From the NCBI GenBank assembly GCA_038255505.1, contig JBBSLF010000001.1, positions 2,549 through 66,548 of the forward strand: a stretch of DNA of 64,000 nucleotides, written 5' to 3'. The notes below the pieces were generated by a model. It saw only the letters and a list, made by a program, of their open reading frames with translations, was not told where the DNA came from and ran no database searches. Position 1 is the first letter of the stretch; the number at the start of each line of letters is the position of its first letter. Below, one piece after another: positions 11-58,618 of the stretch. This DNA is from Candidatus Limnocylindria bacterium (GTDB lineage: Bacteria; Chloroflexota; Limnocylindria; QHBO01). Made by a program: the position numbers and the translations under genes.

Positions 11-658
11 TCAGCGCACGAGCGTCAGGGTTCGCTCATCCACCAGGAGCGCGAGAACCGTTCCTCCGACCAGGAAGGGTCCGAATGGGATGTAGCTGCG
101 CATGCCAACCCGCTTACCGATGAGCAGAATGATGCTGGTACCGGCGGCCAGGAAGGCTGCCGCAAAGAGCGCGGTGAAGATCACCGGCCAGCCAAGCATG
201 AGACCGATAGGTGCCACGAGGTAGAGATCGCCCAGCGCCAATCCACCGCGCACCACGAGCGCGAGCGCGCCGAGGAATCCCACCGCTGCCGCTGCGCCGA
301 TGAGGGCCATGAGCGGGTCCACGGCCGGGTTGAACGGCACGAACAGGACCGCGAGCAGGATGAGCGGGTCGAGCACCAGGTGCGGAAGCCGGCGCTGCTC
401 GAGGTCGGTGGCGGTGAGAACAAGGAGTAGGCCCAGGAGCGCGAGATAACCACCGGTTCCCCACCATGGCAGCTCGGAACGCCCGACAATCCCCGCAGCA
501 GCCAGTCCGCTGACGACGGCAAGGCAGATCGTGCGCCAGCCGAATGGCCGGTTCTGCGCCTCATCGGCCGGCCAGGCGCTGGCGAGTCGTTCCGAGAGCG
601 CGCCGGCAACGGCGAATACGCCGCCGATCGCCAGGGCTGCCAATGTCACGTTCGTCAT
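11..658 (-). CDS. Prepilin (type IV) leader peptidase, A24 family. Polytopic membrane protein.
   Basis: Translation from MTNVTLAALAIGG... is hydrophobic with A24-like motifs GDLYLVAPIGLMLGW and IPFGPFL. ATG at 656-658 with upstream GGAG-type RBS. In-frame stop at the window edge. Confidence 0.65.
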   Translation of the reverse strand: MTNVTLAALAIGGVFAVAGALSERLASAWPADEAQNRPFGWRTICLAVVSGLAAAGIVGRSELPWWGTGGYLALLGLLLVLTATDLEQRRLPHLVLDPLILLAVLFVPFNPAVDPLMALIGAAAAVGFLGALALVVRGGLALGDLYLVAPIGLMLGWPVIFTALFAAAFLAAGTSIILLIGKRVGMRSYIPFGPFLVGGTVLALLVDERTLTLVR

Positions 659-9973: not shown

Positions 9974-11189
9974 AGCCGCCACGGCCGAGCGTGACAGCCG
10001 GCTGGGGTCCACCCTGCGCGGTATTCTCCTGCCATTCCTTGCGCTGCTCGCCGCGTTCGCGGTCGGCGCGATCATCATCGTGGTCACCGACTTCGAGCTG
10101 CTCGGCCTCTGGGCCTCGGACCCGATCGCGGCGCTCGGTGCCTCATGGTCGTCGGTCGCCGCCACGTACGGCGCCCTGCTGGGCGGATCGATCGGCGATC
10201 CCAGCCAGCTCATCGGCGCCCTCCTTGCGCTCGATTGGGCTGGCGTGCGGCAGGCCTTCAATCCCCTGTCGGAGACGATCGTCTCGGCGACGCCGCTGAT
10301 CTTCACCGGGCTGTCGGTGGCGCTCGCGTTCCGCGTTGGCCTATTCAACATCGGCGCCGAGGGACAGCTGTATCTCGGTGCGCTGTTCGCCGTGATCGCC
10401 GGATTCAGCTTCGCGGGGCTTCCCTGGTTCATCCACGTGCCGATCGCCGTGGCCGCCGGCTTCCTTGGCGGCGCGCTGTGGGGCCTCATTCCCGGGTTCC
10501 TCAAGGCCCGGACCGGTGCCCACGAGGTCATCGTCACGATCATGCTGAATTTCGTGGCGTACAACCTCATCAACTGGGCGCTCAAGACGGAGCTCGTCCA
10601 GCGCGAGGGACGCCCCGACCCGATCTCGAAGATCGTCCAGCCGAGCGCGGTGATCCCGGCCCTCATCGAGGGCCTACGCGCAAACTGGGGCATCGTCATC
10701 GCTCTGCTGGCGGCCGTCGCCGTGTGGTGGCTGCTGTTCCGCTCGACGAAGGGCTTCGAGTTCCGGGCCGTCGGCTTGAATCCGCGCGCCGCGCGCTACG
10801 CCGGGATGAGCATCGCGTGGTCGACCGTGCTCTCCATGGTGATCGCGGGAGGGCTCGCCGGACTGGCGGGCGCCGTGGTCATCCTCGGAGGCTCGGGCAC
10901 GCTGTCTCCCGGATTCTCACCCGGCTACGGCTTCGACGGCATCGTCGTCGCCCTCGTCGGCGCGACGCGTCCGCTGGGCGTGGTCGCGGCCGCGTTCCTG
11001 TTCGGAGCGCTCCGTGCCGGCGCCACGCCGATGCAGGCAGCGACAGGAACCCCGCTCGACCTCGTCGTGGTCATCCAGGCGTTGGTCATCATGTTCATCG
11101 CCGCGCCGGCCCTCGTGCGCGCGATCTTCCGCATTCAGGCCGAGCGGCGCACGGGCACCGACGTCTTCGCCAAAGGGTGGGGCTCGTGA
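9960..11189 (+). CDS. ABC transporter permease, first of two (BMP-type system)
   Basis: ATG at 9960 overlapping the ATPase stop. Polytopic TM protein. Start uncertain by a few codons. Confidence 0.75.
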   Translation: MLVAEAATAERDSRLGSTLRGILLPFLALLAAFAVGAIIIVVTDFELLGLWASDPIAALGASWSSVAATYGALLGGSIGDPSQLIGALLALDWAGVRQAFNPLSETIVSATPLIFTGLSVALAFRVGLFNIGAEGQLYLGALFAVIAGFSFAGLPWFIHVPIAVAAGFLGGALWGLIPGFLKARTGAHEVIVTIMLNFVAYNLINWALKTELVQREGRPDPISKIVQPSAVIPALIEGLRANWGIVIALLAAVAVWWLLFRSTKGFEFRAVGLNPRAARYAGMSIAWSTVLSMVIAGGLAGLAGAVVILGGSGTLSPGFSPGYGFDGIVVALVGATRPLGVVAAAFLFGALRAGATPMQAATGTPLDLVVVIQALVIMFIAAPALVRAIFRIQAERRTGTDVFAKGWGS

Positions 11190-12463
11190 CGGCCGTGACG
11201 GCCCCGGTCAGCCTCACGCGCGGGGAGCGGCGGCTGCAGACACGCCAGCGGGTGCTCGGCGTCATCTATCTCGTCCTCGCGGCCGTCATGGTCGTCGGAT
11301 TCGGCGTGAGCGTAGCCGGAAATGTCGAATCGAGCTTCGGGCTCACGTCTCCGACGGCCCCGATCGCCGTTCCGAATCTCGTCCTCCCATCGGCAGCGAC
11401 CGTCTACCTCCTCGCCGGGGTGGTGGCCTTCGCCGGGGCCGTGCAGCTGACCCGCGGATTCGGCGCTCGCATGGCAGCGGTCATGGGGGTCGTCGCCTTT
11501 GCCTTCGTGTTCGCGTTCCTCACGTGGGTCGCCGCGGGCCAGTCGATGAACCTCACGGGCCTGCTGGAGACCACCGTCCAGCGGTCAGTGCCGATCGCCT
11601 TCGGCGCGCTGTCCGGCGTGCTCTGCGAGCGCGCCGGCGTGGTGAACATCGCGATCGAGGGCATGCTCCTCTCGGGCGCGTTCGTCTCGGCAGTCGTGAC
11701 CTCGGCGTTCGACAACCCGTGGCTCGGAATGTTCTCGGCGATCGTCGTCGGCGGCCTGCTCGCCGCCCTCCTCGCCGTGCTGGCCATCCGCTACCGCGTC
11801 GACCAGATCATCGCCGGGTTCTTCATCAACATTCTCGTGACCGGGCTCACGGCATTCCTCTCGGTGCGGCTGCTCCAACCGTTCCAGGACGAGCTGAACA
11901 CGCCCGAGCGACTCGGACCGATCGCCATCCCGTTCCTCTCGGACATTCCGATCCTCGGGCCGATCCTGTTCAACCACAACATCTTCGTCTACCTGCTGTT
12001 CGGGCTGATCGTGGTCATTCACTTTGGCCTGTTCTACACGCGGTGGGGCCTGCGCGTCCGAGCCGTCGGCGAGCACCCGAAGGCGGCCGACACCGCCGGC
12101 GTCAACGTGTACTGGGTCCGCTACAGCAACGTGATCCTGGGCGGCATGGTCGCAGGCCTCGGCGGCGCCTTCTTCACCATCGGCTCGACCGGCGGATTCG
12201 AGCGCGAGATGACGGCCGGGCGCGGCTACATCGGCCTGGCGGCGATGATCTTCGGCGGCTGGAATCCGATCGGTGGCTTCCTCGCCGCGCTCGTGTTCGG
12301 GTTCGCCGATGCCATCCAGTCGCGCCTCTCGATCCTCAGCATCGCCATCCCTTCCGAGTTCCTGCTCATGGTCCCGTACGTCGTGACGATCATCGTCGTC
12401 GCCGGGCTGGTCGGGCGCGCTCGCGCACCAGCCGCCGACGGCAAGCCATACGTCAAGGAGTGA
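11186..12463 (+). CDS. ABC transporter permease, second of two
   Basis: GTG at 11186 overlapping the upstream stop (GTGA). Real gene lies within the 10145 frame. Polytopic TM protein. Confidence 0.75.
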   Translation: MTAVTAPVSLTRGERRLQTRQRVLGVIYLVLAAVMVVGFGVSVAGNVESSFGLTSPTAPIAVPNLVLPSAATVYLLAGVVAFAGAVQLTRGFGARMAAVMGVVAFAFVFAFLTWVAAGQSMNLTGLLETTVQRSVPIAFGALSGVLCERAGVVNIAIEGMLLSGAFVSAVVTSAFDNPWLGMFSAIVVGGLLAALLAVLAIRYRVDQIIAGFFINILVTGLTAFLSVRLLQPFQDELNTPERLGPIAIPFLSDIPILGPILFNHNIFVYLLFGLIVVIHFGLFYTRWGLRVRAVGEHPKAADTAGVNVYWVRYSNVILGGMVAGLGGAFFTIGSTGGFEREMTAGRGYIGLAAMIFGGWNPIGGFLAALVFGFADAIQSRLSILSIAIPSEFLLMVPYVVTIIVVAGLVGRARAPAADGKPYVKE

Positions 12464-25667: not shown

Positions 25668-28445
25668 TCACTCGCCGAACATCGTCAGCTGCTCGCCCCC
25701 GCGCTCGATGAGCGGGTCCAGCCCGAGCACCGGTTCCAGCCATTCCATCTTGGCTCCGGGCCGTCCCGCAAGCGTGTCAAGATGCTGCCACTTCAGCACA
25801 TGCCAGTTCTGGCGTTCCATCTCTTCCCGGAGCCAGGGGGAGCGATCCAGCTTCAACCGAAGCAGCTCGGTCCGTTCAGCCGGGACGACCAGGAACCGCG
25901 CCTGCTGGTCGGTCACCGCGATCTGCCGGCCACGGTCCAGGACCGCGTCGCCGATCATCACCGTCCATTCGACCTCGAACAGAAAGGCGAGCTTGCCGCG
26001 AACGTACCAGATGACGTCGACCGAGCCGAGCGCCTCGGCCGGGGCCCGAACGACCAGGGGCAGGTACACGCGACGTTCATCGTCCCCTAATTGCTCGGCG
26101 ATGCGACGGCCGTCGACCACGCGGTCATGCTCGCGCGCCGCGACCCAGGTGTGCATCCCCAGCCTGTGCCCGTAGTCCACCAGCGTCGCGATGGTCCGAG
26201 CATGATCCGCCGTCCGAGCTGCAAGATCATCGGCCGTGGCGAGCGATCCACGCTCTCCGGGCGCCGCGTACGATGCCAGGCACGCGCGCACCAGCTCCTC
26301 ATCCGGTGCCTGGAGCCCGGGAAACAGCCGGTAGATACGATCGAAGAAACCCGCTTCGTCAATCCGACCTGCGGTCGACAGGATCGACCAGGTGGCCCAC
26401 TCGACTCGGTCGGCCAGGGGACGTTCGGCCAGCTCCGGCGTGCGAAGCCACCAGCTAGGATTGTTCTCGTCGCCGATACGGACAAGGGTCGGATGATCGG
26501 CCCGCCACAGCTCTTCGCGGATGAGATTCGCGAGAAACTGTGGTCCACCGGCCTCGATTCTGTCGGTCCCCTCCTGGACCGCACCGCCACGCTGAAGCGC
26601 CAGCCGGCGGAGCAGGTCCGTGCGTCCCAGCTCGGCCACGATGGCGGCCACGACGCGCGTCAGGCCGGCGGGCTCGCCACGGTCGCGCAGCAGCGCGGTG
26701 ACCGCGCGCTCCATCGCCGATGCCAGCTCAGGATACGTCAGGTGCCCGGACTCGGCACCCAGCCGCAACGGGCTCGGACGCACTGCGTGACGAAGCCGAT
26801 CCTCCGCGGAGGGCTTGCGAAAGTGCAGGACGATCCCATCGCCAGATCTGGCCGATTCACGATGCATGACGTCGACCAGTTGGAGCCCGGCCGCGGCAGC
26901 GGCCAGCGCCACCGACACGAGCCGGTCGGGGTCACCACCATCGATGATGAGATTGCACCAGCCGCCCGGTTTGAGCGCGCCGGCCGCCGAGACAAGGCCA
27001 TGACGCAGAGCGGTGACCTCGGCGCCATCCGCCTGGCCCCCGGATCCGAAGATCGGCTCGAGGCGCAGGGTCTCGGCGGCCTCCCGTCCGAGCACCCAGC
27101 CGGTGGCGAGGTATTCGAATGACAGGTCGTCGATGGAGCCGCCCATGGGCGGAGAGCCGAGGACCAGGTCGACGCCCTCGGTGGGCAGGTACTGGCCGAC
27201 CACGGCCGGACGGCTCCGCAGCCACAGGACGTTGGCGGCGCCCACGCCCCCGAGCTCGGTGAAGTCAGCCGCAAATCGGGTCTCGTGCCGGCCTTGGCCC
27301 ACCGCGCCCACGGCCGTCCTGACGTCGCGATACGCCTCTTCGAACGCCTGCCAGACGTTGACTTCGCGCTGGTGACGGCTCGCCGGCTGGCGCACGTGGC
27401 CATTGCTGATACGAAGCGACGCGACGCGCCCGGGGTAACCATTCAGGCGGCTGGCCGGCAGGAGGCATGCCGCCAGCGCCAGGCGCATGACGGCGAGGGT
27501 GCCGGGGTCACGCAGCTCGGAATCGATCTTGGCGCCGATGGCGTGGAGCGCATACAGGTTGCGCGGCGTGAACAGGTCGAGCAGCTCCTCCACCAGGTCG
27601 TCCTGTGCATCGAGCACGGGGAAACGAGATCGGAGGTCGAGGTACTGCGGACTTTGGCGCAGCCCATCCGCCGCCACCAACGGCATGGGATCCGGTCGGA
27701 CGGTCGAAGCAAAGCGGGGCCGTGCCCCGATCGGTGTGGGCAGGTCGACCGCCAGGGGCGGCGGCGGCGGCGGTTCTCCTCCTTCGCCGAGCGCATCGGG
27801 ATCATCCGACAGGCCGGTCAGGCCGGTCAGGCCGACGGCTGCCGCCGGCAGCTCGTCCGGGGCGTTATCGGCAGCGATGACGTCCTCGGCGGCAGGGGCG
27901 CTGTCGATCCCCAACTTGGCCAGGTCGACCTCATCGACCGCGGCGACCCGATCGCCGGATCCGCCGATGGCTGCCTCGCACGTCGGGCAGCGGAAGATCT
28001 TCCGACCCGGCGCATCCGCATCGCGCGGCCAGATGAACTGGTCGACAAGCACGGGGCGACGGCAGGCGCCGCAGCGGGAGGCGTACAGCTCCTCGATGTG
28101 CTGGCGCAGCGGGACATCGACGCGCCGCGATCCGGCCAACTGCGCGAACGCGGCGTCGAGCACCGCCGGCTCCGGTGCGGAGATAAACGCGATGGCGGCC
28201 ATCTGCGCGAACGGGCTCGGGTCGGCGGCAACGGATCGCATGCCGGCCGCCACGGCGCGCCGCGCGGTCCAGCCGGTGCCGGCCCACGGGTCGAGCACGG
28301 TATCGCCGGTCGCCGCGAAGGCGGCGAGCTCCGCATCAAGGAGGTTGTCGGACGGTGGCGGAAGCAGACGCTCGAGCAGCGCCAACCCCGGAAGGCGTCG
28401 GGGGAGGATGACGTGATCGAGACCGGTGCGCCCCGTGTCGCTCAT
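25668..28445 (-). CDS. Large (925 aa) hypothetical protein with split SAM-methyltransferase-like motifs, an inserted zinc ribbon, a Pro-rich linker, and a C-terminal domain of unknown (possibly nuclease-like) fold
   Basis: Motif I-like VLDPWAGTGWTARRAVAAG at residues about 45-65. CGACRRP...CPTCEAA zinc ribbon. PPPPPP linker. Motif IV-like LVLGSPPMGGS near residue 445. C-terminal DVIWYVRGKLAFLFEVEW segment. Last gene of the polX operon. Confidence 0.55.
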   Translation of the reverse strand: MSDTGRTGLDHVILPRRLPGLALLERLLPPPSDNLLDAELAAFAATGDTVLDPWAGTGWTARRAVAAGMRSVAADPSPFAQMAAIAFISAPEPAVLDAAFAQLAGSRRVDVPLRQHIEELYASRCGACRRPVLVDQFIWPRDADAPGRKIFRCPTCEAAIGGSGDRVAAVDEVDLAKLGIDSAPAAEDVIAADNAPDELPAAAVGLTGLTGLSDDPDALGEGGEPPPPPPLAVDLPTPIGARPRFASTVRPDPMPLVAADGLRQSPQYLDLRSRFPVLDAQDDLVEELLDLFTPRNLYALHAIGAKIDSELRDPGTLAVMRLALAACLLPASRLNGYPGRVASLRISNGHVRQPASRHQREVNVWQAFEEAYRDVRTAVGAVGQGRHETRFAADFTELGGVGAANVLWLRSRPAVVGQYLPTEGVDLVLGSPPMGGSIDDLSFEYLATGWVLGREAAETLRLEPIFGSGGQADGAEVTALRHGLVSAAGALKPGGWCNLIIDGGDPDRLVSVALAAAAAGLQLVDVMHRESARSGDGIVLHFRKPSAEDRLRHAVRPSPLRLGAESGHLTYPELASAMERAVTALLRDRGEPAGLTRVVAAIVAELGRTDLLRRLALQRGGAVQEGTDRIEAGGPQFLANLIREELWRADHPTLVRIGDENNPSWWLRTPELAERPLADRVEWATWSILSTAGRIDEAGFFDRIYRLFPGLQAPDEELVRACLASYAAPGERGSLATADDLAARTADHARTIATLVDYGHRLGMHTWVAAREHDRVVDGRRIAEQLGDDERRVYLPLVVRAPAEALGSVDVIWYVRGKLAFLFEVEWTVMIGDAVLDRGRQIAVTDQQARFLVVPAERTELLRLKLDRSPWLREEMERQNWHVLKWQHLDTLAGRPGAKMEWLEPVLGLDPLIERGGEQLTMFGE

Positions 28446-28465: not shown

Positions 28466-29386
28466 CTAGTGCTCTTCGGCGAGCTCCTCTTCGTCCTCTG
28501 GCTCACCCGAGTACTCGGGGAGTGTCGTGTCGAGCTCCTCGACCTCTTCGGAGTCCTCATCGGCTTCCTCAACCTCTTCGTCGTCATCGTACCGAAGTGC
28601 GCTGCCCTTCATGTACGGTCTGACGCCAGGTCCCGTCTGCCCGAGCGTGGGAAACGAAACTTTGCCGAAGTTGGTGGGATGCGTGAAGACCTCGCGAACG
28701 ATGATGGTCAGCTCGCTGCCGGGCTCGTTGACGGTCGTGATGGCGGCTTCATACCGATTCCCACTGGCGATGAGCTTGAACAGACGCACCGCAATGCGCG
28801 GCTCGACGCTTCCGATCACCGTGCCCCCGACGCGGGCCACCAGTTCGTCGTTCTCGACCTCCAGGTCGACGGCGTCACCGGGTGACCGCCGAGCCAGGAC
28901 GCTTGGCCCTGCCAGGTTGATAAGGCGCGCGCGTCCCGTCTTCCCCATCTCCTCGATGAAGACCGTGGCCGGCGCCTTGCCCGGGCTCTGCTTGCCGTTG
29001 GAGGCCGGACGCTCGGCGGTGGCCATCAGGCGGAGCCGCTCGATGTTGCGCAGTGCGATGCGATTCGTGGCGTCGCGTTCCAGGGCACCCTCGTAGGCGA
29101 TCAGCGCCTCGTCATGCCTGCCGAGCTCCGCGAGCGCTTTGCCGAGCCTGTTGTGCGCGTCGATGTCCGGGCCGAGTTCGAGGAGACTACGGTTCGCGGT
29201 GACCGCCGCCTCCCACTCGCCGCGCGTGGCATGCGCGATGGCGGCCTCGCCGAGCTGCCGTCGTCGTCGGGTCGTGGTGTCGGCTTCTCCAAGCGCCATG
29301 GGGCTTGTGCACGTCTCCGCTGTGGTGATTCGGGCGGCCAACCGGCCGAGGGCGAACCTTGTACCACCGGCCATTGGGGGTGTCAA
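28466..29386 (-). CDS. Hypothetical TPR-repeat protein with a strongly acidic C-terminal tail
   Basis: TPR-like helical repeats (NRLGKALAELGRHDEALIAYEGALERDATNRIALRNI). Central beta-rich domain. Tail DDDEEVEEADEDSEEVEELDTTLPEYSGEPEDEEELAEEH. 20 bp upstream of the 925-aa gene. Confidence 0.5.
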   Translation of the reverse strand: MTPPMAGGTRFALGRLAARITTAETCTSPMALGEADTTTRRRRQLGEAAIAHATRGEWEAAVTANRSLLELGPDIDAHNRLGKALAELGRHDEALIAYEGALERDATNRIALRNIERLRLMATAERPASNGKQSPGKAPATVFIEEMGKTGRARLINLAGPSVLARRSPGDAVDLEVENDELVARVGGTVIGSVEPRIAVRLFKLIASGNRYEAAITTVNEPGSELTIIVREVFTHPTNFGKVSFPTLGQTGPGVRPYMKGSALRYDDDEEVEEADEDSEEVEELDTTLPEYSGEPEDEEELAEEH

Positions 29387-29413: not shown

Positions 29414-30190
29414 TCACGGTCGATAGACGAACAGCCCCACGGCCAGGCCGAGAAGAACGAGCGCCCCGAACTCCACGGCCACGGAGCGACCGGAGGCACC
29501 ACCGCCGAGCGCGTCCACGGCGCCAGCCCACGTATAGAAGGCGAGGGCCAGCAGGGCGGCCGTGACGATCAGTGGCAGGTCAAGCACCACTGCGCCGGCA
29601 CCAACCTGGGCGACGACCAGGACATGCAGCAGAGCCTGTCCGAATGCCTCGGCGCCAAGCGTCCCGCGCGCCTCGGCCGCACGTTGGGCGAGAGGAAGCA
29701 CGAGGATCACGACCAGGATCAGTGGTGTTGGCCAGGTCTGCGTGCCGAATAGCGCCAACAGACCCGCCGAGCCCGCGAAGGTGATCGCCGTCAATTGCAG
29801 GTCGCCGAGCGTGCGGCCTCCCGTGCCGCGCTCGATGCGCATCTCGAGATACGTCACCGACCACAGGATCACGCCCACAATCGGCACCAGCAGGAGGCTC
29901 ACGCCGCCGGGAATCAGGCGCCCGAAGAGCGTCGCCGCAATGCCGGCGGTGGCGGGGATGGCGTACCGCGACAGGCCGAGCTCACCGCGAGCTGGACCGA
30001 TGACGCGCACGGCTCCGATGCCTCCCAGCGCCAGCTGCACGGCGATCGCAACCGACAGCCAGATGGGATCGGAGAACCAGCCGATCGCGGCAACCAGTGC
30101 CTGCGCCGCCGCCAGCATGACGGCAGCCGGACGATCGATGCGGCGCAGGACCGCCAGCCGGCGCGGATCTCCAAAGAGCCGGCTGATCAT
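29414..30190 (-). CDS. Hypothetical polytopic membrane protein (6-7 TM)
   Basis: ATG (MISRLFGDP) overlaps the polX stop (ATGA at 30187-30190). Hydrophobic throughout. Confidence 0.5.
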   Translation of the reverse strand: MISRLFGDPRRLAVLRRIDRPAAVMLAAAQALVAAIGWFSDPIWLSVAIAVQLALGGIGAVRVIGPARGELGLSRYAIPATAGIAATLFGRLIPGGVSLLLVPIVGVILWSVTYLEMRIERGTGGRTLGDLQLTAITFAGSAGLLALFGTQTWPTPLILVVILVLPLAQRAAEARGTLGAEAFGQALLHVLVVAQVGAGAVVLDLPLIVTAALLALAFYTWAGAVDALGGGASGRSVAVEFGALVLLGLAVGLFVYRP

Positions 30191-31938
30191 CGAACCGTCT
30201 CCAGCAACTGCTCGGCCGTGCGCGTGACAAGCAGTTGATCGGGACCAAGCCACGCCCGGCGCGCGATGTCCACGGCGTAGCGCTGCTGAGTGAGTTCCTC
30301 GGTGCGATGCGCGTCAGATACCAGCGTCAGGCGGGCACCGGCACGGCCGGCGGCGCGTGCCAGCGCGTCATCCAGGTCGAGTCGCGGGCTGCCGTTGATC
30401 TCGAGCGCGGTGCCGGTACGTGCCGCTGCCTCGAAGACGCGCGGCCAGTCGAGCGGCAGGGCGTCTCGCCGGTTGACGATCCGACCCGAAGGATGAGCCA
30501 GCACGTCGACGTGCGGGTGCTCGATGGCGGCGATTGCGCGCCGTGTCAACTGCTCAGAGGACTGACCGCGGCCGGTATGGATGCTGGCTATCACGATGTC
30601 GAAGCGCGCCAATAGCTCGTCGGAATAGTCGAGCGTCGCATCGGCCCGGATCTCAAGCTCGGTGCCATGCAGGATGCGGAACGGGGCGAGCTCGCCATTC
30701 AGCCGCGCGATCTCGGTGCGCTGCTCCTCAACGCGCTCCGGGATGAGCCCGCGCGCCACGCCAAGCGAGGGCGAGTGATCGGTCAACACCATGTACTCGT
30801 GGCCAAGGTCGCGCGCTGCGCGGGCCATGACCTCGATCGAGTCGACGCCATCGGTCCAGTCCGAATGGGTGTGGGTGTCGCCGCGCACATCGGCGCCGGT
30901 GACGAGCACTGGCAGCGTGCCGGCCATGGCCGCGGCGATCTCGCCATCCCCCTCGCGCATCTCGGGCGCGATCCAGGGCAGGCCGAGCCGTTCATACACG
31001 TCGACCTCTTCCGCGTCGAGCAGCAGCTCGCCCGTCTCGAGCACCTTGAAGCCCTTCTCCGACAGAGACCAGCCGCGATCGAGCGCCATGCCGCGCAACG
31101 TGATGTTGTGATCCTTGCTGCCGGTGAAGTGCACCAGGTGCGTCCCCCACGTCTCGGGCGGACAGACCATGAGGTCAACGCGCGGACCATCGCGCAGGAT
31201 GATGCTCGACTTGTCCGTCCCGGCCGAGATGATCTTGTCGACCTCCGGCATGCCGTCCAGCGCCGCAATGACCGCGGCTGGATCGTCAACGGCGGCCAGG
31301 ACATCCAGGTCGCCGATGGTCGAGCGTCGACGCCGCAGCGACCCGGCCTGCTCGATTCGATGGACGCCGGATACGTCGCGCAAGTGGTCGACCAGCCTGG
31401 CCACCAGCGCATCGGCGTCGTGAATGAGCAGCCGCGTGCTGCGCCGCTCGATCCGGCCGATGCCATCCAGGATGTTCTGCTCCGTCCGAGCCGAAAGCCC
31501 TTTCACGTGGCGCAGGCCGCCGGACTCCGCGGCTGCACGCAGGCTGTCGAGCGATTCGATTCCGAGCTCGGCATGGATCAGCTTCACGGTGCGCGGGCCG
31601 ACGCCGGACACCTGGAGCATGTCGAGCAGCCCGTCCGGCACCTGGGCGCGAAGGCGTTGGTGATACTCGAGGCGGCCGGTCTCCGACAGCTCGGCCAGCT
31701 TCGCGGTCAGCGCCGCGCCCGCGCCCGGCAGCTTCGGCGGCTCGCCGCGACGGAAGAGCGCCGCCACATCCTCCGGATAGCGCTCGATCACATCGGCGAC
31801 CCGACGGTAGGCAACGGCCTTGAACACCACCTCGCCCTGGATCTCGAGCATGTCCCCGATCTCGTTGAAAATGCGAGCCAGTTCGGAATTGGTGATCGTG
31901 GTGCCGCTGCTGCGCGACACGCTTCGGGGTCGAGGCAT
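30187..31938 (-). CDS. polX: DNA polymerase X family protein with C-terminal PHP phosphoesterase domain
   Basis: N-terminal Pol-beta-like region (NSELARIFNEIGDMLEIQGE, HhH GVGPRTV). PHP motifs DTHTHSDWTDG and TDHSPS. 583 aa. Confidence 0.85.
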   Translation of the reverse strand: MPRPRSVSRSSGTTITNSELARIFNEIGDMLEIQGEVVFKAVAYRRVADVIERYPEDVAALFRRGEPPKLPGAGAALTAKLAELSETGRLEYHQRLRAQVPDGLLDMLQVSGVGPRTVKLIHAELGIESLDSLRAAAESGGLRHVKGLSARTEQNILDGIGRIERRSTRLLIHDADALVARLVDHLRDVSGVHRIEQAGSLRRRRSTIGDLDVLAAVDDPAAVIAALDGMPEVDKIISAGTDKSSIILRDGPRVDLMVCPPETWGTHLVHFTGSKDHNITLRGMALDRGWSLSEKGFKVLETGELLLDAEEVDVYERLGLPWIAPEMREGDGEIAAAMAGTLPVLVTGADVRGDTHTHSDWTDGVDSIEVMARAARDLGHEYMVLTDHSPSLGVARGLIPERVEEQRTEIARLNGELAPFRILHGTELEIRADATLDYSDELLARFDIVIASIHTGRGQSSEQLTRRAIAAIEHPHVDVLAHPSGRIVNRRDALPLDWPRVFEAAARTGTALEINGSPRLDLDDALARAAGRAGARLTLVSDAHRTEELTQQRYAVDIARRAWLGPDQLLVTRTAEQLLETVR

Positions 31939-35221: not shown

Positions 35222-35842
35222 TCACGAGGCCCGAAGGACGCCTTCGAGGCGCAGGAGGAAGCGCTTTCGGTCGAGGCCGCCGGTGTAGCCGCCCAGTCCG
35301 CCGCCGGCATGGAGGACGCGGTGGCACGGCACGACGATCGGCACGGGATTCGAGCCGAGCGCGTTCCCGGCCGCGCGATACGCATTCGGCGAGCCAGCCT
35401 CGGTCGCAATCTCGCGATACGAGGAGACTCCCCCGAACGGGATGTGCGCGGTGGCCCGCAGGACGGCGCCGGCGAAGCCGCGGACGAGGCGCCAGTCGAT
35501 CGGAACGTCGAACGCGCGACGCGTGCCCGCGAAGTAATCATCGAGCTGGCGACGGACCTCGTCTGTGCGCTCGGGTGCGGACATGATGCGGGGCGAGATG
35601 ATGGCGGCCAGCTCCGCGAGCTGCTCTTCGACCGCCTCGTGTGCATATGACAGCCTCACCAGGCCTCGCGGCGTGACCATGACGGTCAACGGACCGAGAG
35701 GCGAATCGTATGTGCCATGGGCCACATCAAGCAGGCCATCGGTCCCGGCCCGCCGTGCAAGCGTCGTGCGCAGGCGGTCGAGATCGAGCGGAGGGACGGA
35801 CCCGGCAGCATCGGCCAGGCGGCGCTCGAGGTCATCGGTCAT
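35222..35842 (-). CDS. ogt: Methylated-DNA--protein-cysteine methyltransferase
   Basis: Active-site VPCHRV motif in the C-terminal domain. Confidence 0.85.
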   Translation of the reverse strand: MTDDLERRLADAAGSVPPLDLDRLRTTLARRAGTDGLLDVAHGTYDSPLGPLTVMVTPRGLVRLSYAHEAVEEQLAELAAIISPRIMSAPERTDEVRRQLDDYFAGTRRAFDVPIDWRLVRGFAGAVLRATAHIPFGGVSSYREIATEAGSPNAYRAAGNALGSNPVPIVVPCHRVLHAGGGLGGYTGGLDRKRFLLRLEGVLRAS

Positions 35843-36419
35843 TGGTGGTCACCTCGCGGCGCAGCCGCCGCAGGCCGGCGCGGACATTCTGGCGCGCGGC
35901 CTCCTCGCTGATGCCCATGCGCTCCCCGACCTCGACGTAGGCAAGGTCCAGCACGAACCGATGCACCACCGCCGCGCGCTGCTTGGCCGGCAACGATCGC
36001 ACGCGCAGCCAGAGTTCGTCATCGCCCGGTGGCGCACTCGGGGGCGCAACCGGCTCGATGCCGTCGAGGTCCCGCGTCGGACGGCGTGCCGTGCGTCGGA
36101 TGACATCGGTCGCTTTGCGCTGCGCGATCGTATACAGCCAGGCACGGAGGTTGTCGCCATGGCGAAGTCTCGGGTAGGCGCGCAACGCGGACATGAAGGT
36201 CTCCTGGACGCAGTCCTCCGCCTCGGTCGGACCGACAAGGCCCACCAGAAACCGATGCAGCTCACGGGCATGAGCATCGATCAGCGTCTCGAACGGCGGG
36301 AGCTGCACACCTGGTGAAACGCCGCGACGCGGGGTCACGTGAGATCGGACTACCGGATCGCCTCGACCTCGATGTCGAGATCGAGCGAATTCCAGGCCCG
36401 ATCCGGCGTGCGAACTCAA
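35832..36419 (-). CDS. ECF-subfamily RNA polymerase sigma-70 factor
   Basis: Region 2 (ELHRFLVGL...DCVQETFMSALRAYPRLR...RAWLYTIAQRKATD) and region 4 (LPAKQRAAVVHRFVLDLAYVEVGERMGISEEAARQNV). True start is probably an internal GTG. Overlaps the ogt start. Confidence 0.75.
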   Translation of the reverse strand: MSSHAGSGLEFARSRHRGRGDPVVRSHVTPRRGVSPGVQLPPFETLIDAHARELHRFLVGLVGPTEAEDCVQETFMSALRAYPRLRHGDNLRAWLYTIAQRKATDVIRRTARRPTRDLDGIEPVAPPSAPPGDDELWLRVRSLPAKQRAAVVHRFVLDLAYVEVGERMGISEEAARQNVRAGLRRLRREVTTNDR

Positions 36420-53961: not shown

Positions 53962-55031
53962 CGACCGACTCGCACGCCGACAACGCTGCGTCGCAACAGC
54001 CACAGGAAGACTGGGGCGCCGCTGAGGGCGGTGACGCCGCCCACCGGGATGCCGCCGGCCAGGCGTGCTCCGAGGTCGGCCAGCACCAGCAGGCCTGCGC
54101 CGTACAGCATGCTGGCCGGCAATAGCAGCCGATGGTCGGGGCCGATGGCAAGGCGCACCAGGTGTGGCACGACGAGTCCCACGAAGCCGATCGTGCCCGA
54201 GATGGCGACTCCCGCCGAGGTGGAGAGCGCCGCCAGACCGGTCAGAATGCGCTTCTCGCGCTCGACGTCCACGCCCAGATGAGCGGCCTGCGCTTCCCCG
54301 AGCAGGAGTGCGTTGAGGCGTCGCCAGCGAAGCAGGAGCAACGAGAAGCTGATCACGATGAGGGGCGCCGCGAAGGCGACTCGCGGCCACGACGCGCCAG
54401 CGAGCGATCCGAGCAGCCAGCTGATGACCGCCGCAAGGCGCTCACCCGAGTTGAAGATCAGCAGCGCGACGCCGGCCGCCAGGAGCGATGACACTGCGTA
54501 GCCGGCCAGCAGCAGCGTCACGGCCGGAGTGCCGCCCCGTCCTCGAGCGATGAGGAACACCACCAGCACGGTTACCAGCCCTCCGGCGAACGCGAAGAGC
54601 TGGACCAGGCCGATCCCAAGCCAGCCCACCGACGCGACCGGAACCAACAGCAGCGCCGTGACGGCCCCCAGGGACGCTCCGGCCGCTGGGCCGATGATGT
54701 ACGGGTCGGCCATCGGGTTGCGCAGCAGCGCCTGGAAGACCGTGCCGGCACACGCGAGGCCGGCGCCGACGACCATGCCGGCCACGATGCGCGGGAGCCG
54801 CAGCTCCCACACGATCGTCTCGGTCGAAGCGGGCCAGGTGACCGGCCCGATTCCGGTCAGCTGGTACAGCAGGATGGCAACGGCGTCGCCGATGCTGATG
54901 CCGCTGGTGCCGAAGACGAGCGCCGCGCCTGCGGCGATCACGAGGAGCGCGGTGCCGCCACCCAGCACCAAGGTCGTTCGACCCGGTGACGGGCCGAACG
55001 CGATTGGCCGGGCCACGGTCGTGGCACTCAT
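53958..55031 (-). CDS. btuC: FecCD-family ABC permease (BtuC-like)
   Basis: FecCD-type polytopic permease. ATG at 55029-55031. Confidence 0.75.
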   Translation of the reverse strand: MSATTVARPIAFGPSPGRTTLVLGGGTALLVIAAGAALVFGTSGISIGDAVAILLYQLTGIGPVTWPASTETIVWELRLPRIVAGMVVGAGLACAGTVFQALLRNPMADPYIIGPAAGASLGAVTALLLVPVASVGWLGIGLVQLFAFAGGLVTVLVVFLIARGRGGTPAVTLLLAGYAVSSLLAAGVALLIFNSGERLAAVISWLLGSLAGASWPRVAFAAPLIVISFSLLLLRWRRLNALLLGEAQAAHLGVDVEREKRILTGLAALSTSAGVAISGTIGFVGLVVPHLVRLAIGPDHRLLLPASMLYGAGLLVLADLGARLAGGIPVGGVTALSGAPVFLWLLRRSVVGVRVGR

Positions 55032-55036
55032 GCGGA

Positions 55037-56041
55037 TTACTCGAAGCTGTCCGGATGGATCGCGCGCGCCAGGGCCTCGAGGCCATCGACGATCCTCGGG
55101 CCCGGACGCGTGGTGACTATGTCGTCGAGGTACGGAATCACCGCACCGTCGCGAACGGCGGACAGGTCGGCCCACCCGGCGCGAGCGCGGACCGCCCCCA
55201 GCGCGGCTTCGGAATCACTCAACGATGGGTCATACGACGCCGTGCCGAGCAGGACGAGCTCCGGGTCAGCGGCGACCAGGTCCTCGGCACCGATCACGCC
55301 CTGCGCGTCCCCGGTCAGCGGCGTCGCCCCCGCCAGGTCAAGCAACGAGGCAAGGAAGGATCCCTGCCCGGCCGTATACGTCGTTCCCTCGGAGTGGAAC
55401 ACTTCGTACAGGGTCAGCGGCCGCTCGACGCCTTCGACCGCAGCAACGAGGTCGGCCACGCGGCCCTCCATGCCGTTCACCAGCTCGGCGGCCTCCGACC
55501 GCCGGTCGAGCGCCGCCCCCATCAGTTCGATATCGGCATAGACCTCGTCGAGGGTCTCGGGATACAGGATCAGAACGGGGAGCTCGAGTGCGTCGAGCTG
55601 TTCGATGACGGCCGACGGCGTGAGCTCGTTCCCGGCGGCGAGGATGAGATCAGGCTCGGCGGCGACCACCAGCTCGACGTCCACCGAGGCCGCGATCACA
55701 ACGGCATCGACATCGACCACCTCGGGCGGGAAGTCATCAAAGTCGGTGACGCCGACAAGGCGGTCGCAGGCGCCGAGCGCGCAGACGATCTCGGTATTCG
55801 ACGGGGCCAGGCTGACGATCCGGCGCGGCGAAGCATCGAGGACCAGCTCCCGACCAGCGTCATCGGTCAGGGTGACCGGGAACGACTCTGCGACGGCCGA
55901 CGGCACGAGGCTAGCCGTGGCTGTCGTGGGATCCGCCGATGCTGTCGGTGCTGAGCCGGGGGGCGCCGCACAGGCGGAGGTGAGGAGAAGAAGGAGGAGG
56001 AGGAGGAGGAAAACAGGACGCGGAGGGCGAAACAGTGCCAT
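55037..56041 (-). CDS. btuF: Periplasmic-binding lipoprotein, cluster-A/BtuF-like (cobalamin or siderophore binding)
   Basis: Poly-Leu signal then lipobox LLLTSAC. Class III binding-protein fold features. Directly downstream of a cobalamin riboswitch. Confidence 0.75.
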   Translation of the reverse strand: MALFRPPRPVFLLLLLLLLLTSACAAPPGSAPTASADPTTATASLVPSAVAESFPVTLTDDAGRELVLDASPRRIVSLAPSNTEIVCALGACDRLVGVTDFDDFPPEVVDVDAVVIAASVDVELVVAAEPDLILAAGNELTPSAVIEQLDALELPVLILYPETLDEVYADIELMGAALDRRSEAAELVNGMEGRVADLVAAVEGVERPLTLYEVFHSEGTTYTAGQGSFLASLLDLAGATPLTGDAQGVIGAEDLVAADPELVLLGTASYDPSLSDSEAALGAVRARAGWADLSAVRDGAVIPYLDDIVTTRPGPRIVDGLEALARAIHPDSFE

Positions 56042-56074
56042 GAGGTGATGCCTTCCCTTTCACACGAGGGCGGT

Positions 56075-56262
56075 GACATCGCGATCTGGCTGGTCGACCT
56101 GGCTTTCGCGCCCCCATCAAGCGACAGGGCATGCGACTGGGCATGCGACTGGGCATGCGACTGGGGCGCGACTACAGTAGCGGGACTGCGCCGGCATCTC
56201 ACCGGCTTCGCCATTTACCCGTCCGCCTTTCGGGGACGGCACCGATCACTTCGTCTTCAGTT
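56075..56262 (-). ncRNA. Cobalamin (B12) riboswitch in the 5' leader of the btuFCD-like operon
   Basis: Minus-strand sequence reads GGUGCC...GCCGGUGAGAUGCCGGCGCAGUCCCGCUACUGUAG...AGCCAGGUCGACCAGCC. This matches the conserved GGUGCC, GGUGAAAxCC...CCCGCxACUGUAA core and the 3' B12-box AGCCAGGAGACCUGCC. It ends about 35 nt before the ATG. Confidence 0.6.
56127..56173. repeat. Tandem repeat, three perfect copies of GGGCATGCGACT plus a degenerate fourth. Lies inside the variable region of the cobalamin riboswitch.
   Basis: Seen in the sequence. Confidence 0.8.
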
Positions 56263-56549
56263 GACGCCGATGCTAGCACGCGTTGACGGCACGGGCGCCT
56301 GAACCTTCAGGGTGCTGCCGTCGTATTACTCTATGGTGGCCACGAATAGGGCAAACCGGTGGTTTCACCACAGTCACCGAGCGCGCAGGCGCCAGATGAC
56401 TCGGCCAGTTGATTGGGAGGGTTGCGACGTGCGTCGCGCACGGACTATGCTCCCCAACTTAATACGCGGGCAACAATGCCGGCGTGTAATATGCCCGCGT
56501 GCAAAATGCACCCAGAGAGAGGGAAATCGATGACAGCAGGGAATTATCG

Positions 56550-58499
56550 ATGACGACATTGAGCAGGAACGCGTCTTTTGTGCGCCTCTTCGTCCTCGTC
56601 GCCATCCTCGCCCTCGTGGCGACGGCCTGCGGTGACGCGGGAACCAGTACACCCGCCACCTCGGCAGGCTCAGACGCCTCGGAGGCCCCGGCTTCGGCAC
56701 CGGCATCCGACGATCCGGGCACCTCGGAGCCACCGGCCAGCGCAGGTACAGGCGGCGACCTCGGAACGTACACCCTGGGCATCTTCCAGGACATCACAAC
56801 CGACAACTACTGGAACTACCTCGATGCGGGAAGCACCGTCTGGAACCAGTACGTGCTTGGACCCAACCTCAACGCTGCCTACGCCACGGTGATGCCGGGT
56901 GGCGACCTCCAGCCGGACCTGGCGGATGGGGACCTCCCCGAGGTGACCGAGGATGGCGACGTGTGGATCGGTGAGTTCACGCTGCGCGACGACGTGCTGT
57001 GGTCGGACGGCGAGCAGCTCACTGCCGACGACGTGGTCTTCACCTGGCAGACCGCAGTCGACCTCGAGCTGGGGACCAACTGGCCCGACCTCGTGGACGC
57101 GGACATCGTGACCGCGGTCGAAGCCGTCGACGACCTCACCGTGCGCGTCACCTTCAACGCACAGCCGGGTCTGGGCCATTGGGGTCCGGGTTCGAGTGTG
57201 ACCACCATGCCCGTGCAGCCCGAACACTTCTGGGCTGACGTTGTAGAGGAAGCGCGTGCTTCTGACGATCCTGCCACGACACTGCTCGCCGCGTCAGGTG
57301 TAGGTGCCCCCGCCACCGGCCCGACGGTCTATGGCGAGCGCCAAGAGGGTAGCTTCGCCGCTACCACGGCGAACCCGAATTACTTCGACAATGGCGCGGA
57401 AATCTCATCTGGTGACGCCACGTGGACCGAGGGTCCGTACGCTGAGAACTTCCAGTTCCCGCTCTACGGCGGACAGGAAGCAGCAGTGCTGGCGCTGGCA
57501 GACGGTGAGGTTGACCTCCTGCTGAACCCGTTGGGAATGCAGCGAGGGTTCCAGGACCAGGTCACGGAGAATGCCGACCTGACAGCTGTCGTCAATCCGA
57601 CCAACGGCTATCGGTTCCTGGCGTTCAACCATACGCGTGCCCCCATGAGCCAGCCGGCCTTCCGTGATGCACTCACGGTACTCATCGACAAGGAGTTCGT
57701 TACCGAGAGCCTCTTGCAGGGAGTGGCCTTCCCGCTCTACGTCCTGCTCCCCGAGGGCAACAGCGCTTGGTACGACGCCGACATCGCCGGCGAGCTGGCC
57801 GAGGTCGGATATGCCGGAATGGAAACGGATGCGCGTCGCGCCGAGGCGATCAGTCTCCTGACCGAGGCCGGATACACCTGGGAGACCGCTCCCGGTTTCG
57901 CCGATGAGGATGGAGAAGTCTCCCCCGAACCGGGCGAAGGTCTCACCTTCTCGGCCGGTTCGGGCCTGATCGATCCCGACGGCGCCGCGGTCCCGCAGCT
58001 GGACATCTTGACGCCGACCGCGTCATACGACCCGCTGCGCTCGACCTTCGGTGCCTACATTTCCGGCGTTGCGCAGGAGATGGGGATACCGATCGTGTCC
58101 ATCCCGACCGACTTCAACAAGATCATCGATATCGTGTTCGCGGAAGAGGATCCCGACTTCGACATGTTCATCCTCGGATATTCTCTTGGGAGCCCGGCTT
58201 TCCCGGACTTCCACGGGGCGTTCTTCGGGACCGAAGGAGGATCGAACAACACGGGCTATTCCAACGCGGAATACGACGAACTCGTCGCCGCCTTCAGCTC
58301 TTCGCAGACGGTGGATGAGGCGTTCGGTCATCTGTGGGAGATGGAACGGATCATCGCCCGCGACAAGCCGCACATCCCGCTGTTCGATACCGGCATCCTG
58401 GAGTTCTACAACAACAGGGTCCAGTACCCGTTCACCGAGACGCTTTCCGGCCTGCAGTTCTTGTCTGGCCAACAGAGCGCTGTGACGCTCGCCGACTGA
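56550..58499 (+). CDS. Family-5 ABC substrate-binding lipoprotein (peptide/nickel/opine type, DppA/OppA/NikA-like)
   Basis: ATG at 56550, lipobox LVATACG, 649 aa with family-5 binding-protein features. Confidence 0.8.
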   Translation: MTTLSRNASFVRLFVLVAILALVATACGDAGTSTPATSAGSDASEAPASAPASDDPGTSEPPASAGTGGDLGTYTLGIFQDITTDNYWNYLDAGSTVWNQYVLGPNLNAAYATVMPGGDLQPDLADGDLPEVTEDGDVWIGEFTLRDDVLWSDGEQLTADDVVFTWQTAVDLELGTNWPDLVDADIVTAVEAVDDLTVRVTFNAQPGLGHWGPGSSVTTMPVQPEHFWADVVEEARASDDPATTLLAASGVGAPATGPTVYGERQEGSFAATTANPNYFDNGAEISSGDATWTEGPYAENFQFPLYGGQEAAVLALADGEVDLLLNPLGMQRGFQDQVTENADLTAVVNPTNGYRFLAFNHTRAPMSQPAFRDALTVLIDKEFVTESLLQGVAFPLYVLLPEGNSAWYDADIAGELAEVGYAGMETDARRAEAISLLTEAGYTWETAPGFADEDGEVSPEPGEGLTFSAGSGLIDPDGAAVPQLDILTPTASYDPLRSTFGAYISGVAQEMGIPIVSIPTDFNKIIDIVFAEEDPDFDMFILGYSLGSPAFPDFHGAFFGTEGGSNNTGYSNAEYDELVAAFSSSQTVDEAFGHLWEMERIIARDKPHIPLFDTGILEFYNNRVQYPFTETLSGLQFLSGQQSAVTLAD

Positions 58500-58517
58500 C
58501 CGACCTGTAGCTCAATC

Positions 58518-58548: not shown

Positions 58549-58618
58549 GCTCGTTCACTTTCGTTGCCGTCAGCGAATCAACCGGTAAGGGGCCGAACGT
58601 GAGGAGTCACCTGCACAC

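Follow-up and report, generated by a model that had tools for sequence, protein, structure and literature searches.

A conserved Chloroflexota protein that looks like a domesticated restriction-modification enzyme with a sliding-clamp-binding-type tail

We analyzed a conserved, unnamed chromosomal protein of Chloroflexota that looks like a tamed (domesticated) restriction-modification (R-M) enzyme, in which motif IV of the methyltransferase (MTase) has decayed and the acidic residues of a restriction endonuclease (REase)-like domain have been kept. The gene lies in a 64,000-nucleotide stretch of Candidatus Limnocylindria bacterium (GenBank assembly GCA_038255505.1, contig JBBSLF010000001.1; hereafter "the window"), and its product combines a split beta-class-like amino-MTase fold, winged helices, a PD-(D/E)xK-fold domain and a QLxLF-type peptide like those by which replication and repair proteins attach to the DNA sliding clamp (Table 1). 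Judging from these sequence features, we tentatively propose that the protein is a single-chain, R-M-derived DNA-binding and nuclease protein that would be tethered to the sliding clamp and act in replication-coupled repair, a reading that we hold with somewhat less than even confidence.

The 925-codon ATG-to-stop open reading frame lies on the minus strand, and its translation contains every string quoted in the original prediction, which had been made from the DNA letters and a list of open reading frames. A plus-strand reading of the same interval was rejected, its translation being riddled with stop codons. The start codon agrees with the N-termini of homologues, a putative ribosome-binding site (GAGGGG) stands 4 nt 5' of the ATG, and we confirmed the gene as real; a promoter and terminator scan gave no signal above shuffled expectation. 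One homologue search returned 499 matches at E<=1e-3, of which the best 120 are full-length and 71-97% identical, while a second matched 1243 cluster representatives. An alignment of distant members used as query gave 21 matches, with DUF1156 proteins among the remote ones. Relatives are encoded in 235 GTDB species genomes, those listed all belonging to Chloroflexota, and among the 80 species genomes listed (loci all in Limnocylindria) the orthologues are 63-98% identical, with fixed synteny. Overall, a whole soil and freshwater class carries this conserved gene in single copy, relatives occur across Chloroflexota, and the gene looks like a vertically inherited core gene. Every source that gives the protein any name calls it "hypothetical". 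Our comparisons use three clades: 121 close orthologues, 128 further Limnocylindria members (together 249, at 35-97% identity) and 54 members from Chloroflexota outside Limnocylindria. The strand, the winged-helix domains, the link to PolX, the vertical inheritance and the C-terminal clamp-binding-type motif are additions to the original prediction.

Table 1 Features of the gene, its product and its neighbors, in window positions.
Feature	Position	Strand	Basis or detail
Whole coding sequence, 925 aa plus stop codon	25668..28445	(-)	Open reading frame list and translation; full-length homologues, 71-97% identical
MTase fold, N-terminal piece, residues 42-76	28218..28322	(-)	Strand 1 with motif I DPWAGTG (D52-G58); strand 2 ending at motif-II acidic D75
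Insert start, helical segment, residues 77-120	28086..28217	(-)	AlphaFold pLDDT above 90
Zinc ribbon, residues 121-170	27936..28085	(-)	C125-x2-C128 and C153-x2-C156; conserved Cys; beta-hairpins in AlphaFold model
Disordered low-complexity linker, residues 184-251	27693..27896	(-)	pLDDT below 50
Alpha/beta part of insert, residues 257-388, presumed target-recognition/DNA-binding module	27282..27677	(-)	pLDDT 85-96
MTase fold, C-terminal piece, residues 389-545, strands 3-7	26811..27281	(-)	
Decayed motif IV SPPM, residues 431-434	27144..27155	(-)	Alignment of 121 close orthologues
Winged-helix domains, residues 566-740	26226..26750	(-)	Invariant RGEP (R589, E591, P592), W666, E682
PD-(D/E)xK REase-like domain, residues 741-900	25746..26225	(-)	Candidate active-site D810, E824, E826, T828, K865, K885
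Conserved C-terminal tail LGLDPLIERGGEQLTMFGE, residues 901-925	25671..25745	(-)	Identity 99/59/36% across clades
QLTMF, residues 919-923, beta-sliding-clamp-binding-type pentapeptide	25677..25691	(-)	Motif conservation in family
TPR protein with acidic tail, upstream	28466..29386	(-)	Pfam TPR matches; 20-nt gap to the ATG of the 925-codon gene
DNA polymerase/3'-5' exonuclease PolX, first gene of conserved cluster	30187..31938	(-)	PRK08609, 470.6 bits vs cut-off 426

The gene belongs to a conserved cluster with the order PolX, membrane protein, TPR protein and the 925-residue protein, found at 78 of the 78 Limnocylindria loci with upstream DNA; the TPR gene is directly upstream in all of these, and likewise in Limnocylindrales, and is probably co-transcribed with our gene. 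PolX matches HHH_8, HHH_5, DNA_pol_B_thumb and PHP in Pfam and the equivalog model PRK08609 in NCBIfam. Its linkage is confined to the class Limnocylindria. Around relatives in four classes or orders the neighbors are housekeeping genes, and no R-M or defense partners or defense islands were found at any locus context examined.

The original prediction had noted a motif-I-like N-terminus, and the family alignment supports it. Within residues 50-68 (VLDPWAGTGWTARRAVAAG), D52, P53, W54, A55, G56 and G58 are invariant in 121/121 close orthologues, as is D75, and both the glycine-rich SAM loop (DPFxGxG) and the acidic residue ending strand 2 are thus present; the sister clades lack the GxG loop of motif I entirely. 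The motif I region aligns to TTHA0409 and M.RsrI, and matches to beta-class DNA MTases are confined to the N-terminal piece of the fold. AlphaFold (full-length model, pLDDT 83.6, pTM 0.81) predicts a complete class-I Rossmann SAM-MTase fold with high confidence. Family models give little more: Pfam N6_N4_Mtase (PF01555) reaches 13.1 bits, below its cut-off at 26.7, over residues 42-73 only, NCBIfam MTase models match at E 0.18 or higher, and PADLOC reports an MTase_II match at E=3e-8 over residues 41-112, with nothing in the three sets beyond such sub-threshold or partial motif-I matches. A Foldseek search of the whole model against the PDB returned just weak, diluted MTase matches.

Motif IV has fared differently from motif I. 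About 380 residues further on, within LVLGSPPMGGS, the protein has SPPM, and the catalytic (D/N/S)PP(Y/F/W) is absent both here and in the orthologues, which have A/S-P-P/A-x. The deviation from motif IV had been pointed out from the single sequence, and it extends through the family: position 431 is Ala in 100 and Ser in 19 of the 121 close orthologues (Ala in 20/25 in a smaller alignment), P432 is invariant, and position 434, the aromatic slot, is occupied by P (54), A (37), V (13), R (5) and others (M, I, Q), with an entropy of 2.68 bits that places it at the 99.6th percentile of variability, among the least constant of the structured positions. In the sister clades motif IV reads QPPx or EPPR. 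Because distant relatives at 21-25% identity retain DPFxGSG and DPPY and pass Pfam at ~1e-21, we interpret the change as a loss, and SPPM is, on this alignment evidence, not a functional motif IV. The prevalence of Ala at position 431, the hypervariable aromatic slot and the sister-clade sequences make amino-methyltransferase activity very unlikely. The case also illustrates how little motif I by itself says about whether a protein is an active methyltransferase.

The beta-class N6/N4 amino-MTases (PF01555: M.RsrI, TTHA0409, M.MboIIA and CcrM) share with our protein the class-I Rossmann fold, DPxxGxG and the acidic end of strand 2, and those of its relatives that are 21-25% identical to it have DPPY and count as genuine members of this group. 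Our protein differs from them in its decayed motif IV, its sub-threshold Pfam score, a ~310-residue insert after strand 2 (with motif I preceding motif IV), and its added winged-helix, REase-like and tail modules.

The insert splits the MTase fold and holds a zinc ribbon, as had been proposed from the string CGACRRP...CPTCEAA, which contains C125, C128, C153 and C156. All four Cys are kept in 121/121, 126/128 (the other two being gaps) and 52-54/54 members of the three clades, and the model forms beta-hairpins there. The PPPPPP run (residues 224-229) falls inside the disordered linker, which is restricted to the close clade, the other clades showing 0-1% identity (a gap). FTPRNLYAL (T293, R295) and ExNxW (E361, N363, W365), both in the following alpha/beta part, are invariant across the three clades. 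We presume this part to be a target-recognition or DNA-binding module, since its position after strand 2 matches the target-recognition domain (TRD) insert described for DUF1156 and type-3 BREX methylases (bioRxiv 10.1101/2025.10.09.681413). The layout had been called nonstandard; an insert does interrupt the fold, but large alpha+beta TRD-type inserts past core strand 2 are already known from the DUF1156/BREX-related and type-3 BREX (PglXI) MTases of that study. Distant members of our family weakly match NF042963 (DUF1156_antiphage), whereas the DUF1156 N-terminal domain (PF06634) has no match on the protein or its orthologues, and no DUF499, helicase or PglZ gene lies beside it. Unlike the DUF1156/BREX-related methylases, the protein has lost its catalytic motif, has added a C-terminal REase-like domain and resides in a housekeeping context.

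The C-terminal ~185 residues are predicted to adopt a PD-(D/E)xK restriction-endonuclease fold with an alpha-beta-beta-beta-alpha-beta core (pLDDT 91 in a separate AlphaFold model of the region), in keeping with an earlier suggestion of such a fold over about 230 residues, though with the canonical Lys absent. In the predicted structure, D810 precedes strand 2 and E824-V-E826 ends strand 3 (residues 810-827, DVIWYVRGKLAFLFEVEW), leaving the canonical slot without Lys (ExE, not ExK). With D810, E824-V-E826 and then T828 make up a BamHI-like acidic cluster (D94/E111/E113 in BamHI). Of the 249 Limnocylindria members, 247-249 keep D810, E824, E826, T828 and R858, K865 is Arg in 6 and K885 is replaced in 7, and the domain as a whole is the second most conserved region of the protein. 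Close systems for this domain are the PD-(D/E)xK type II REases (NgoMIV, R.BspD6I, HindIII, the FokI cleavage domain) and the C-terminal domain of R.NmeDI, from which it differs in the replaced (D/E)xK Lys and in the absence of a cognate active methylase; a precomputed label on the protein, marked weak, is NmeDI_C (Pfam PF27126). A profile search against PDB sequences gave nothing for the C-terminal half. Outside Limnocylindria the acidic cluster is degenerate, with E824 in 14/54 and E826 in 18/54 members, and cleavage therefore cannot be the function of the whole family.

This degeneracy bears on the possibility that both enzyme-derived domains are dead scaffolds and that the protein is a non-catalytic factor, binding specific DNA through its zinc ribbon, insert and winged helices and occupying or regulating the sliding clamp, for example by marking or organizing newly replicated DNA or by competing with polymerases. 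The residues invariant across the three clades, with few exceptions, are all non-catalytic (the four Cys, R295, E361/N363/W365, R589/E591/P592, W666, E682, R858, W881 and Q919), most members have lost motif IV, many of those outside Limnocylindria no longer have the acidic cluster, and the canonical Lys is missing. Against this, the acidic cluster and T828 and R858 are fixed within Limnocylindria, with K865 and K885 nearly so, and motifs I and II are fixed as well in the close orthologues, so that a ligand-binding or catalytic role is hard to avoid there. We consider a purely non-catalytic role unlikely, if still worth taking seriously.

The tail is the best-conserved segment across the clades. 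Its QLTMF ends 2 residues before the C-terminus, and a motif of the form Q[LIMV]x[LMIV][FLIM] occurs within the last 14 residues of 280/310 long family members; it has a constant Q, L/M and F/L and a variable third residue, and Q919 is kept in 121/121, 127/128 and 48/54 members of the three clades. Among the 343 open frames of >=100 codons in the window, this protein alone has such an ending. To our knowledge, no bacterial MTase-fold protein with a sliding-clamp-binding motif has been described, and our literature search found no account of an MTase-like one. The published clamp-binding consensus is QL(S/D)LF, usually C-terminal (PMC9690074), and QLTMF matches this type by sequence. The clamp-binding peptide of NucS, [EK][LY][TR]LF, occupies the same extreme C-terminal position (PMC6159515).

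The tail could instead dock elsewhere, for example on the co-encoded TPR protein, or turn back onto the protein's own nuclease domain. C-terminal peptides are common ligands of TPR domains, the TPR protein resembles the Hop/SGTA-type TPRs that bind such peptides, and in all Limnocylindria loci examined its gene is the immediate upstream neighbor. The full-length AlphaFold model draws a helix at residues 912-923, yet along the final 15 residues pLDDT declines first to 71 and later to 45, and the last 4 residues of the C-terminal domain model stay under 50. Moreover, similar tails occur on some DUF1156 defense methylases: 2 of the 6 DUF1156-type proteins seen end in QMRML or QLPLDM, so that our tail may be of older origin and serve to dock onto a different partner. 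The motif is, however, just as well conserved in members without a TPR neighbor, among them Anaerolineae and Dehalococcoidia, and clamp-binding peptides show the same positional pattern, with a fixed Q, then L/M, a free third position, L/M and F/L, right at the C-terminus (PMC9690074). Docking elsewhere than on the clamp therefore seems to us improbable.

The original prediction offered a MTase, a MTase-derived pseudoenzyme or a fused modification and cleavage enzyme, and our results favor a mixture of the second and third, the first falling with the decay of motif IV. An active orphan DNA (or RNA) MTase with an unusual motif IV, riding the clamp on new DNA as an analogue of PCNA-bound DNMT1, would account for the invariant DPWAGTG and D75, the complete predicted Rossmann fold, the invariant P432, the Ser at 431 in the window protein, and the Q-L-x-L tails also carried by distant DPPY-bearing relatives. 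We nevertheless rejected this reading because of the variability of motif IV, and regard it as very improbable: Ala predominates at position 431, the base-stacking aromatic slot accepts P, A, V, R, M, I or Q, the sister clades lack the GxG loop, and Pfam and NCBIfam scores are far under their cut-offs. As for a functional type IIC/IIG-like R-M or other anti-phage defense enzyme, which the union of MTase and REase folds in one polypeptide, the PADLOC match, the kinship to DUF1156/BREX-related methylases and the NmeDI_C label would suggest, we rejected it on context and conservation as highly improbable, given the decayed motif IV, the vertical-looking identity and fixed synteny in place of a patchy, horizontally transferred distribution, the absence of partner genes and defense islands at the contexts examined, and the self-toxicity of cutting without cognate methylation.

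Returning to a clamp-tethered, R-M-derived protein in replication-coupled repair, we infer the following scheme. The protein would no longer methylate DNA; its MTase-derived module, zinc-ribbon insert and winged helices would read DNA, perhaps by flipping a base into the inactive pocket, and perhaps with bound SAM as a ligand. The C-terminal pentapeptide would recruit it to the beta sliding clamp (DnaN) and thereby to newly replicated or repair-intermediate DNA, and in Limnocylindria the REase-like domain would nick or cut DNA, with the co-encoded PolX completing the repair step. The protein would then be a repair endonuclease anchored to the clamp, working much as NucS/EndoMS or MutH do, rather than a defense enzyme. 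In its most specific form, the scheme has a hitherto unrecognized Chloroflexota endonuclease whose dead pocket and zinc ribbon make a base-flipping or sequence reader, possibly SAM-gated, whose REase-like domain nicks nascent DNA at clamp-marked sites, and for which PolX resynthesizes the patch; this full version is speculative, and we assign it a low probability.

NucS/EndoMS, the clamp-activated mismatch endonuclease of Actinobacteria and Archaea, likewise combines a DNA-reading N-terminus (putative in our protein), a REase-fold C-terminal domain and a terminal clamp-type peptide (PMC6159515). Unlike NucS, our protein is about four times larger, uses a MTase-derived reading module and has ExE, not ExK. 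Pfam and NCBIfam scans at E<=1 gave no match to the NucS family, and the resemblance appears to be functional and architectural only, not sequence-based. MutH, a repair nickase that shares ancestry with the restriction enzyme Sau3AI, is a precedent for the recruitment of a restriction-type nuclease into replication-coupled repair; it has no homology to our protein and has neither a MTase-derived module nor a clamp-binding motif.

If the proposed function holds, the protein would be a clear case of an R-M enzyme domesticated into genome maintenance, with a concept that parallels PCNA-bound DNMT1 and clamp-activated NucS, and bacterial PolX would gain a concrete candidate partner. A clamp-tethered endonuclease of this kind would, if real, constitute a third independent route of replication-coupled error or damage correction, beside MutS/L(/H) and NucS.

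The ORF list and translation place an open reading frame of 925 codons, from ATG to stop, on the minus strand at window 25668-28445. The original prediction had delimited a real gene, but the strand is minus: every string it quoted occurs in the minus-strand translation, and a plus-strand reading is ruled out because stops interrupt it. A GAGGGG Shine-Dalgarno-like element lies 4 nt 5' of the ATG, and 20 nt separate the gene from the end of an upstream TPR gene. One search with the protein matched 499 database proteins at E<=1e-3, of which the best 120 are full-length, 71-97% identical, and "hypothetical protein" wherever a source names them; an exhaustive HMMER scan matched 1243 cluster representatives. 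A relative is encoded in 235 GTDB species genomes, the closest being a Chloroflexota MAG (98% identity); the source organism belongs to Candidatus Limnocylindria. This is a genuine gene, and a widely conserved one.

Features of the 925-aa protein (residue numbers; sites by identity tier) and of its surroundings (window positions)
Feature	Position	Strand	Detail
MTase fold, N-terminal piece	49-76	minus	strand 1, helix, strand 2 (AlphaFold)
MTase fold, C-terminal piece	389-545	minus	strands 3-7 (AlphaFold)
Motif-I-like VLDPWAGTGW	50-59	minus	A: DPWAGTG 121/121; B: (D/E)LHGRGG, glycine-rich loop; C: GxG mostly absent
Strand 2 end	D75		A: D 121/121; B: E 125/128; C: D 19/54, rest mixed
CxxC...CxxC pair	C125, C128, C153, C156	minus
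Pro-rich linker	184-251		disordered, pLDDT <50
PPPPPP stretch		minus
SPPM of LVLGSPPMGGS (motif IV)	431-434	minus	A: A/S-P-P/A-x, 431 = Ala 100/121; B: Q-P-P-x; C: mixed, Tyr 6/54
DVIWYVRGKLAFLFEVEW	810-827	minus
Acidic site	D810		A: 121/121; B: 126/128; C: 41/54
Acidic site	E824		A: 121/121; B: 127/128; C: 14/54
Acidic site	E826		A: E 102, D 19; B: E 124, D 3; C: E 18/54
C-terminal end			...GLDPLIERGGEQLTMFGE
TPR protein	28466-29386	minus	very acidic C-terminal tail
Membrane protein	29414-30253	minus	unannotated
PolX	30187-31938	minus	NCBIfam equivalog, 470.6 bits vs cut-off 426
Ogt-like ORF	35222-36419	minus	PCHRV motif
Cobalamin riboswitch (RF00174)	56070-56261	minus	47.8 bits vs gathering score 31.5

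An AlphaFold model built from a 50-sequence alignment is confident (pLDDT 83.6, pTM 0.81). The protein combines a methyltransferase (MTase) fold with a zinc-ribbon insert, winged-helix domains and a restriction-endonuclease (REase) fold. The insert, of about 310 residues, splits the MTase fold after strand 2. It starts with a helical stretch and a zinc ribbon, whose four cysteines are the same in practically all family members; it also includes the Pro-rich linker, which is confined to the protein's own clade, and an alpha/beta module with family-invariant FTPRN and ExNxW motifs. The zinc ribbon and N-terminal motif-I-like string originally noted are borne out, and the suspected nuclease-like C-terminus has a PD-(D/E)xK fold whose ExE signature is non-canonical. 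The layout of split motifs, called non-standard, is unusual yet has precedent, since a recent comparative study of BREX describes a TRD insert at exactly the same position, after core strand 2, in DUF1156/BREX-related and type-3 BREX methylases (bioRxiv 10.1101/2025.10.09.681413); unlike them, the protein lacks their N-terminal domain and partner genes. The family profile matched beta-class N6/N4 DNA methylases (M.RsrI at 2.4e-7, then TTHA0409, M.MboIIA and CcrM) over the motif-I region only, and many homologues carry a precomputed Pfam label, NmeDI_C, flagged as weak.

We compared sites across 304 family members in three tiers: A (60% identity or more, n=121), B (34-60%, n=128; a ~40% clade whose available names are Limnocylindrales or Chloroflexota) and C (<34%, n=54; Dehalococcoidia, Anaerolineae, other Chloroflexota and a handful of relatives whose MTase motifs are canonical). 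In the nuclease-like domain, D810 directly precedes strand 2, and E824-V-E826 ends strand 3, followed by T828. Across tiers A and B (247-249 of 249 sequences), D810, E824, E826, T828 and R858 do not vary, and K865 and K885 hardly do. This acidic cluster is preserved in the class Limnocylindria. It lacks the canonical lysine; BamHI, too, has an E-x-E arrangement. Judged by these residues, an intact nuclease active site in Limnocylindria is plausible. The positions invariant in all three tiers (the four cysteines, W139, R295, E361/N363/W365, R589/E591/P592, W666, E682, Y726, R858, W881 and Q919) are non-catalytic, which favors a rival reading of the protein as purely a non-catalytic, clamp-associated DNA-binding factor, which we consider less likely than the main one.

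The last 25 residues are the best-conserved segment (99, 59 and 36% identity in three comparison groups). Of 310 long family members, 280 have a Q-[LMI]-x-[LM]-[FL] pentapeptide among their final 14 residues, most commonly QLTMF (111), QLPLF (53), QMPLF (30), QLALF (13) or QIPLF (12), then QLTIF, QLGLF and QLSLF (10 each); in most other members it lies somewhat further from the end. Its third position varies freely, and Q919 is kept in 121/121, 127/128 and 48/54 sequences of tiers A, B and C. This conserved pentapeptide is of the clamp-binding type, its sequence pattern being that by which bacterial proteins bind the beta clamp, QL(S/D)LF, typically C-terminal (PMC9690074). The window has 343 open frames of 100 codons or more, and only this one ends in such a motif; AlphaFold confidence drops over its last residues, which would fit a flexible docking peptide. 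Alternatively, the tail might dock to another partner, a reading that partly overlaps with the others: C-terminal peptides are what Hop/SGTA TPRs bind, and the TPR protein encoded directly upstream, which is similar to these, may by analogy be the receptor. We consider this rather unlikely. Of six DUF1156-type proteins (PF06634) recovered as remote matches, two (P0394 and P0395) have clamp-motif-like ends, …AQMRML and …EQLPLDM; the tail could therefore predate domestication, or some defence methylases may dock to the clamp or a common partner.

Motifs I and II are preserved and motif IV has decayed: the SPPM string proposed for it is present, but tier A sequences have P, A, V, R, M, I or Q in the aromatic slot, with an entropy of 2.68 bits (99.6th percentile among structured positions). 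Four relatives at 21-25% identity (P0221, P0250, P0259 and P0391) have both DPF(A/S/C)GSG and DPPY, and Pfam N6_N4_Mtase accepts them at about 1e-21; the ancestor was therefore a real amino-methyltransferase whose catalytic motif has since been lost. The protein descends from the PF01555 family and is not a member, failing on score and on motif IV. Its SAM-pocket residues are kept and its methyl-transfer and base-stacking motif is gone; an active orphan methylase is very improbable.

The gene is the last of a co-directional cluster. Using tblastn of the cluster proteins against 80 species-representative Limnocylindria loci, we found the order PolX, membrane protein, TPR protein and this gene in all 78 whose upstream DNA is covered, even where this protein is only 63% identical; the gene is genetically linked to PolX. 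TPR and PolX also lie close by in Limnocylindrales, and unrelated housekeeping genes are the neighbors in Anaerolineae, Dehalococcoidia-like and other Chloroflexota. The membrane protein matched no family, nor did the C-terminal half of the TPR protein. None of the neighborhoods examined contains a defence partner, be it restriction, helicase, BREX or another. The pattern is that of a core gene inherited vertically, rather than of a mobile R-M system; a defence R-M enzyme is the least probable reading.

Less than 8 kb away lies a further DNA-repair gene, an Ogt-like methylated-DNA-protein-cysteine methyltransferase ORF overlapping an ECF sigma-factor-like ORF; Methyltransf_1N/DNA_binding_1 is found at the syntenic locus L001. 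In Limnocylindrales, certain homologues are far longer (P0382, 1524 aa; P0315, 1325 aa), one fused to a DUF885 domain, which the gene directly downstream encodes at two loci (L088 and L089); such proteins probably reflect either gene-calling errors or true fusions to the neighbor downstream. The riboswitch is the only Rfam match in the 64-kb window, in which no tRNA genes were found. AT skew is extreme at 10001-12000 (-0.261) and 54001-56000 (+0.224), and GC is 0.61-0.65 over 56001-64000 vs 0.66-0.71 elsewhere.

Domestication of a restriction nuclease for repair has a precedent in MutH, which is related to Sau3AI. The nearest functional analogue is NucS/EndoMS, which likewise joins a reader to an REase-like domain and a clamp motif at the C-terminus but has no homology to this protein; NucS, a clamp-activated mismatch endonuclease, ends in [EK][LY][TR]LF and cannot do without its last five residues (PMC6159515). 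We found no description in the literature of a bacterial MTase-fold protein with a clamp-binding motif. The architecture and motif conservation are solid, and from here we infer a mechanism, holding it tentatively at somewhat under an even chance: the protein would have stopped methylating, its MTase-derived module would read DNA, and DnaN, the beta sliding clamp, would recruit it. In Limnocylindria it would then nick or cleave DNA during a process coupled to replication or repair, and PolX would complete that process.
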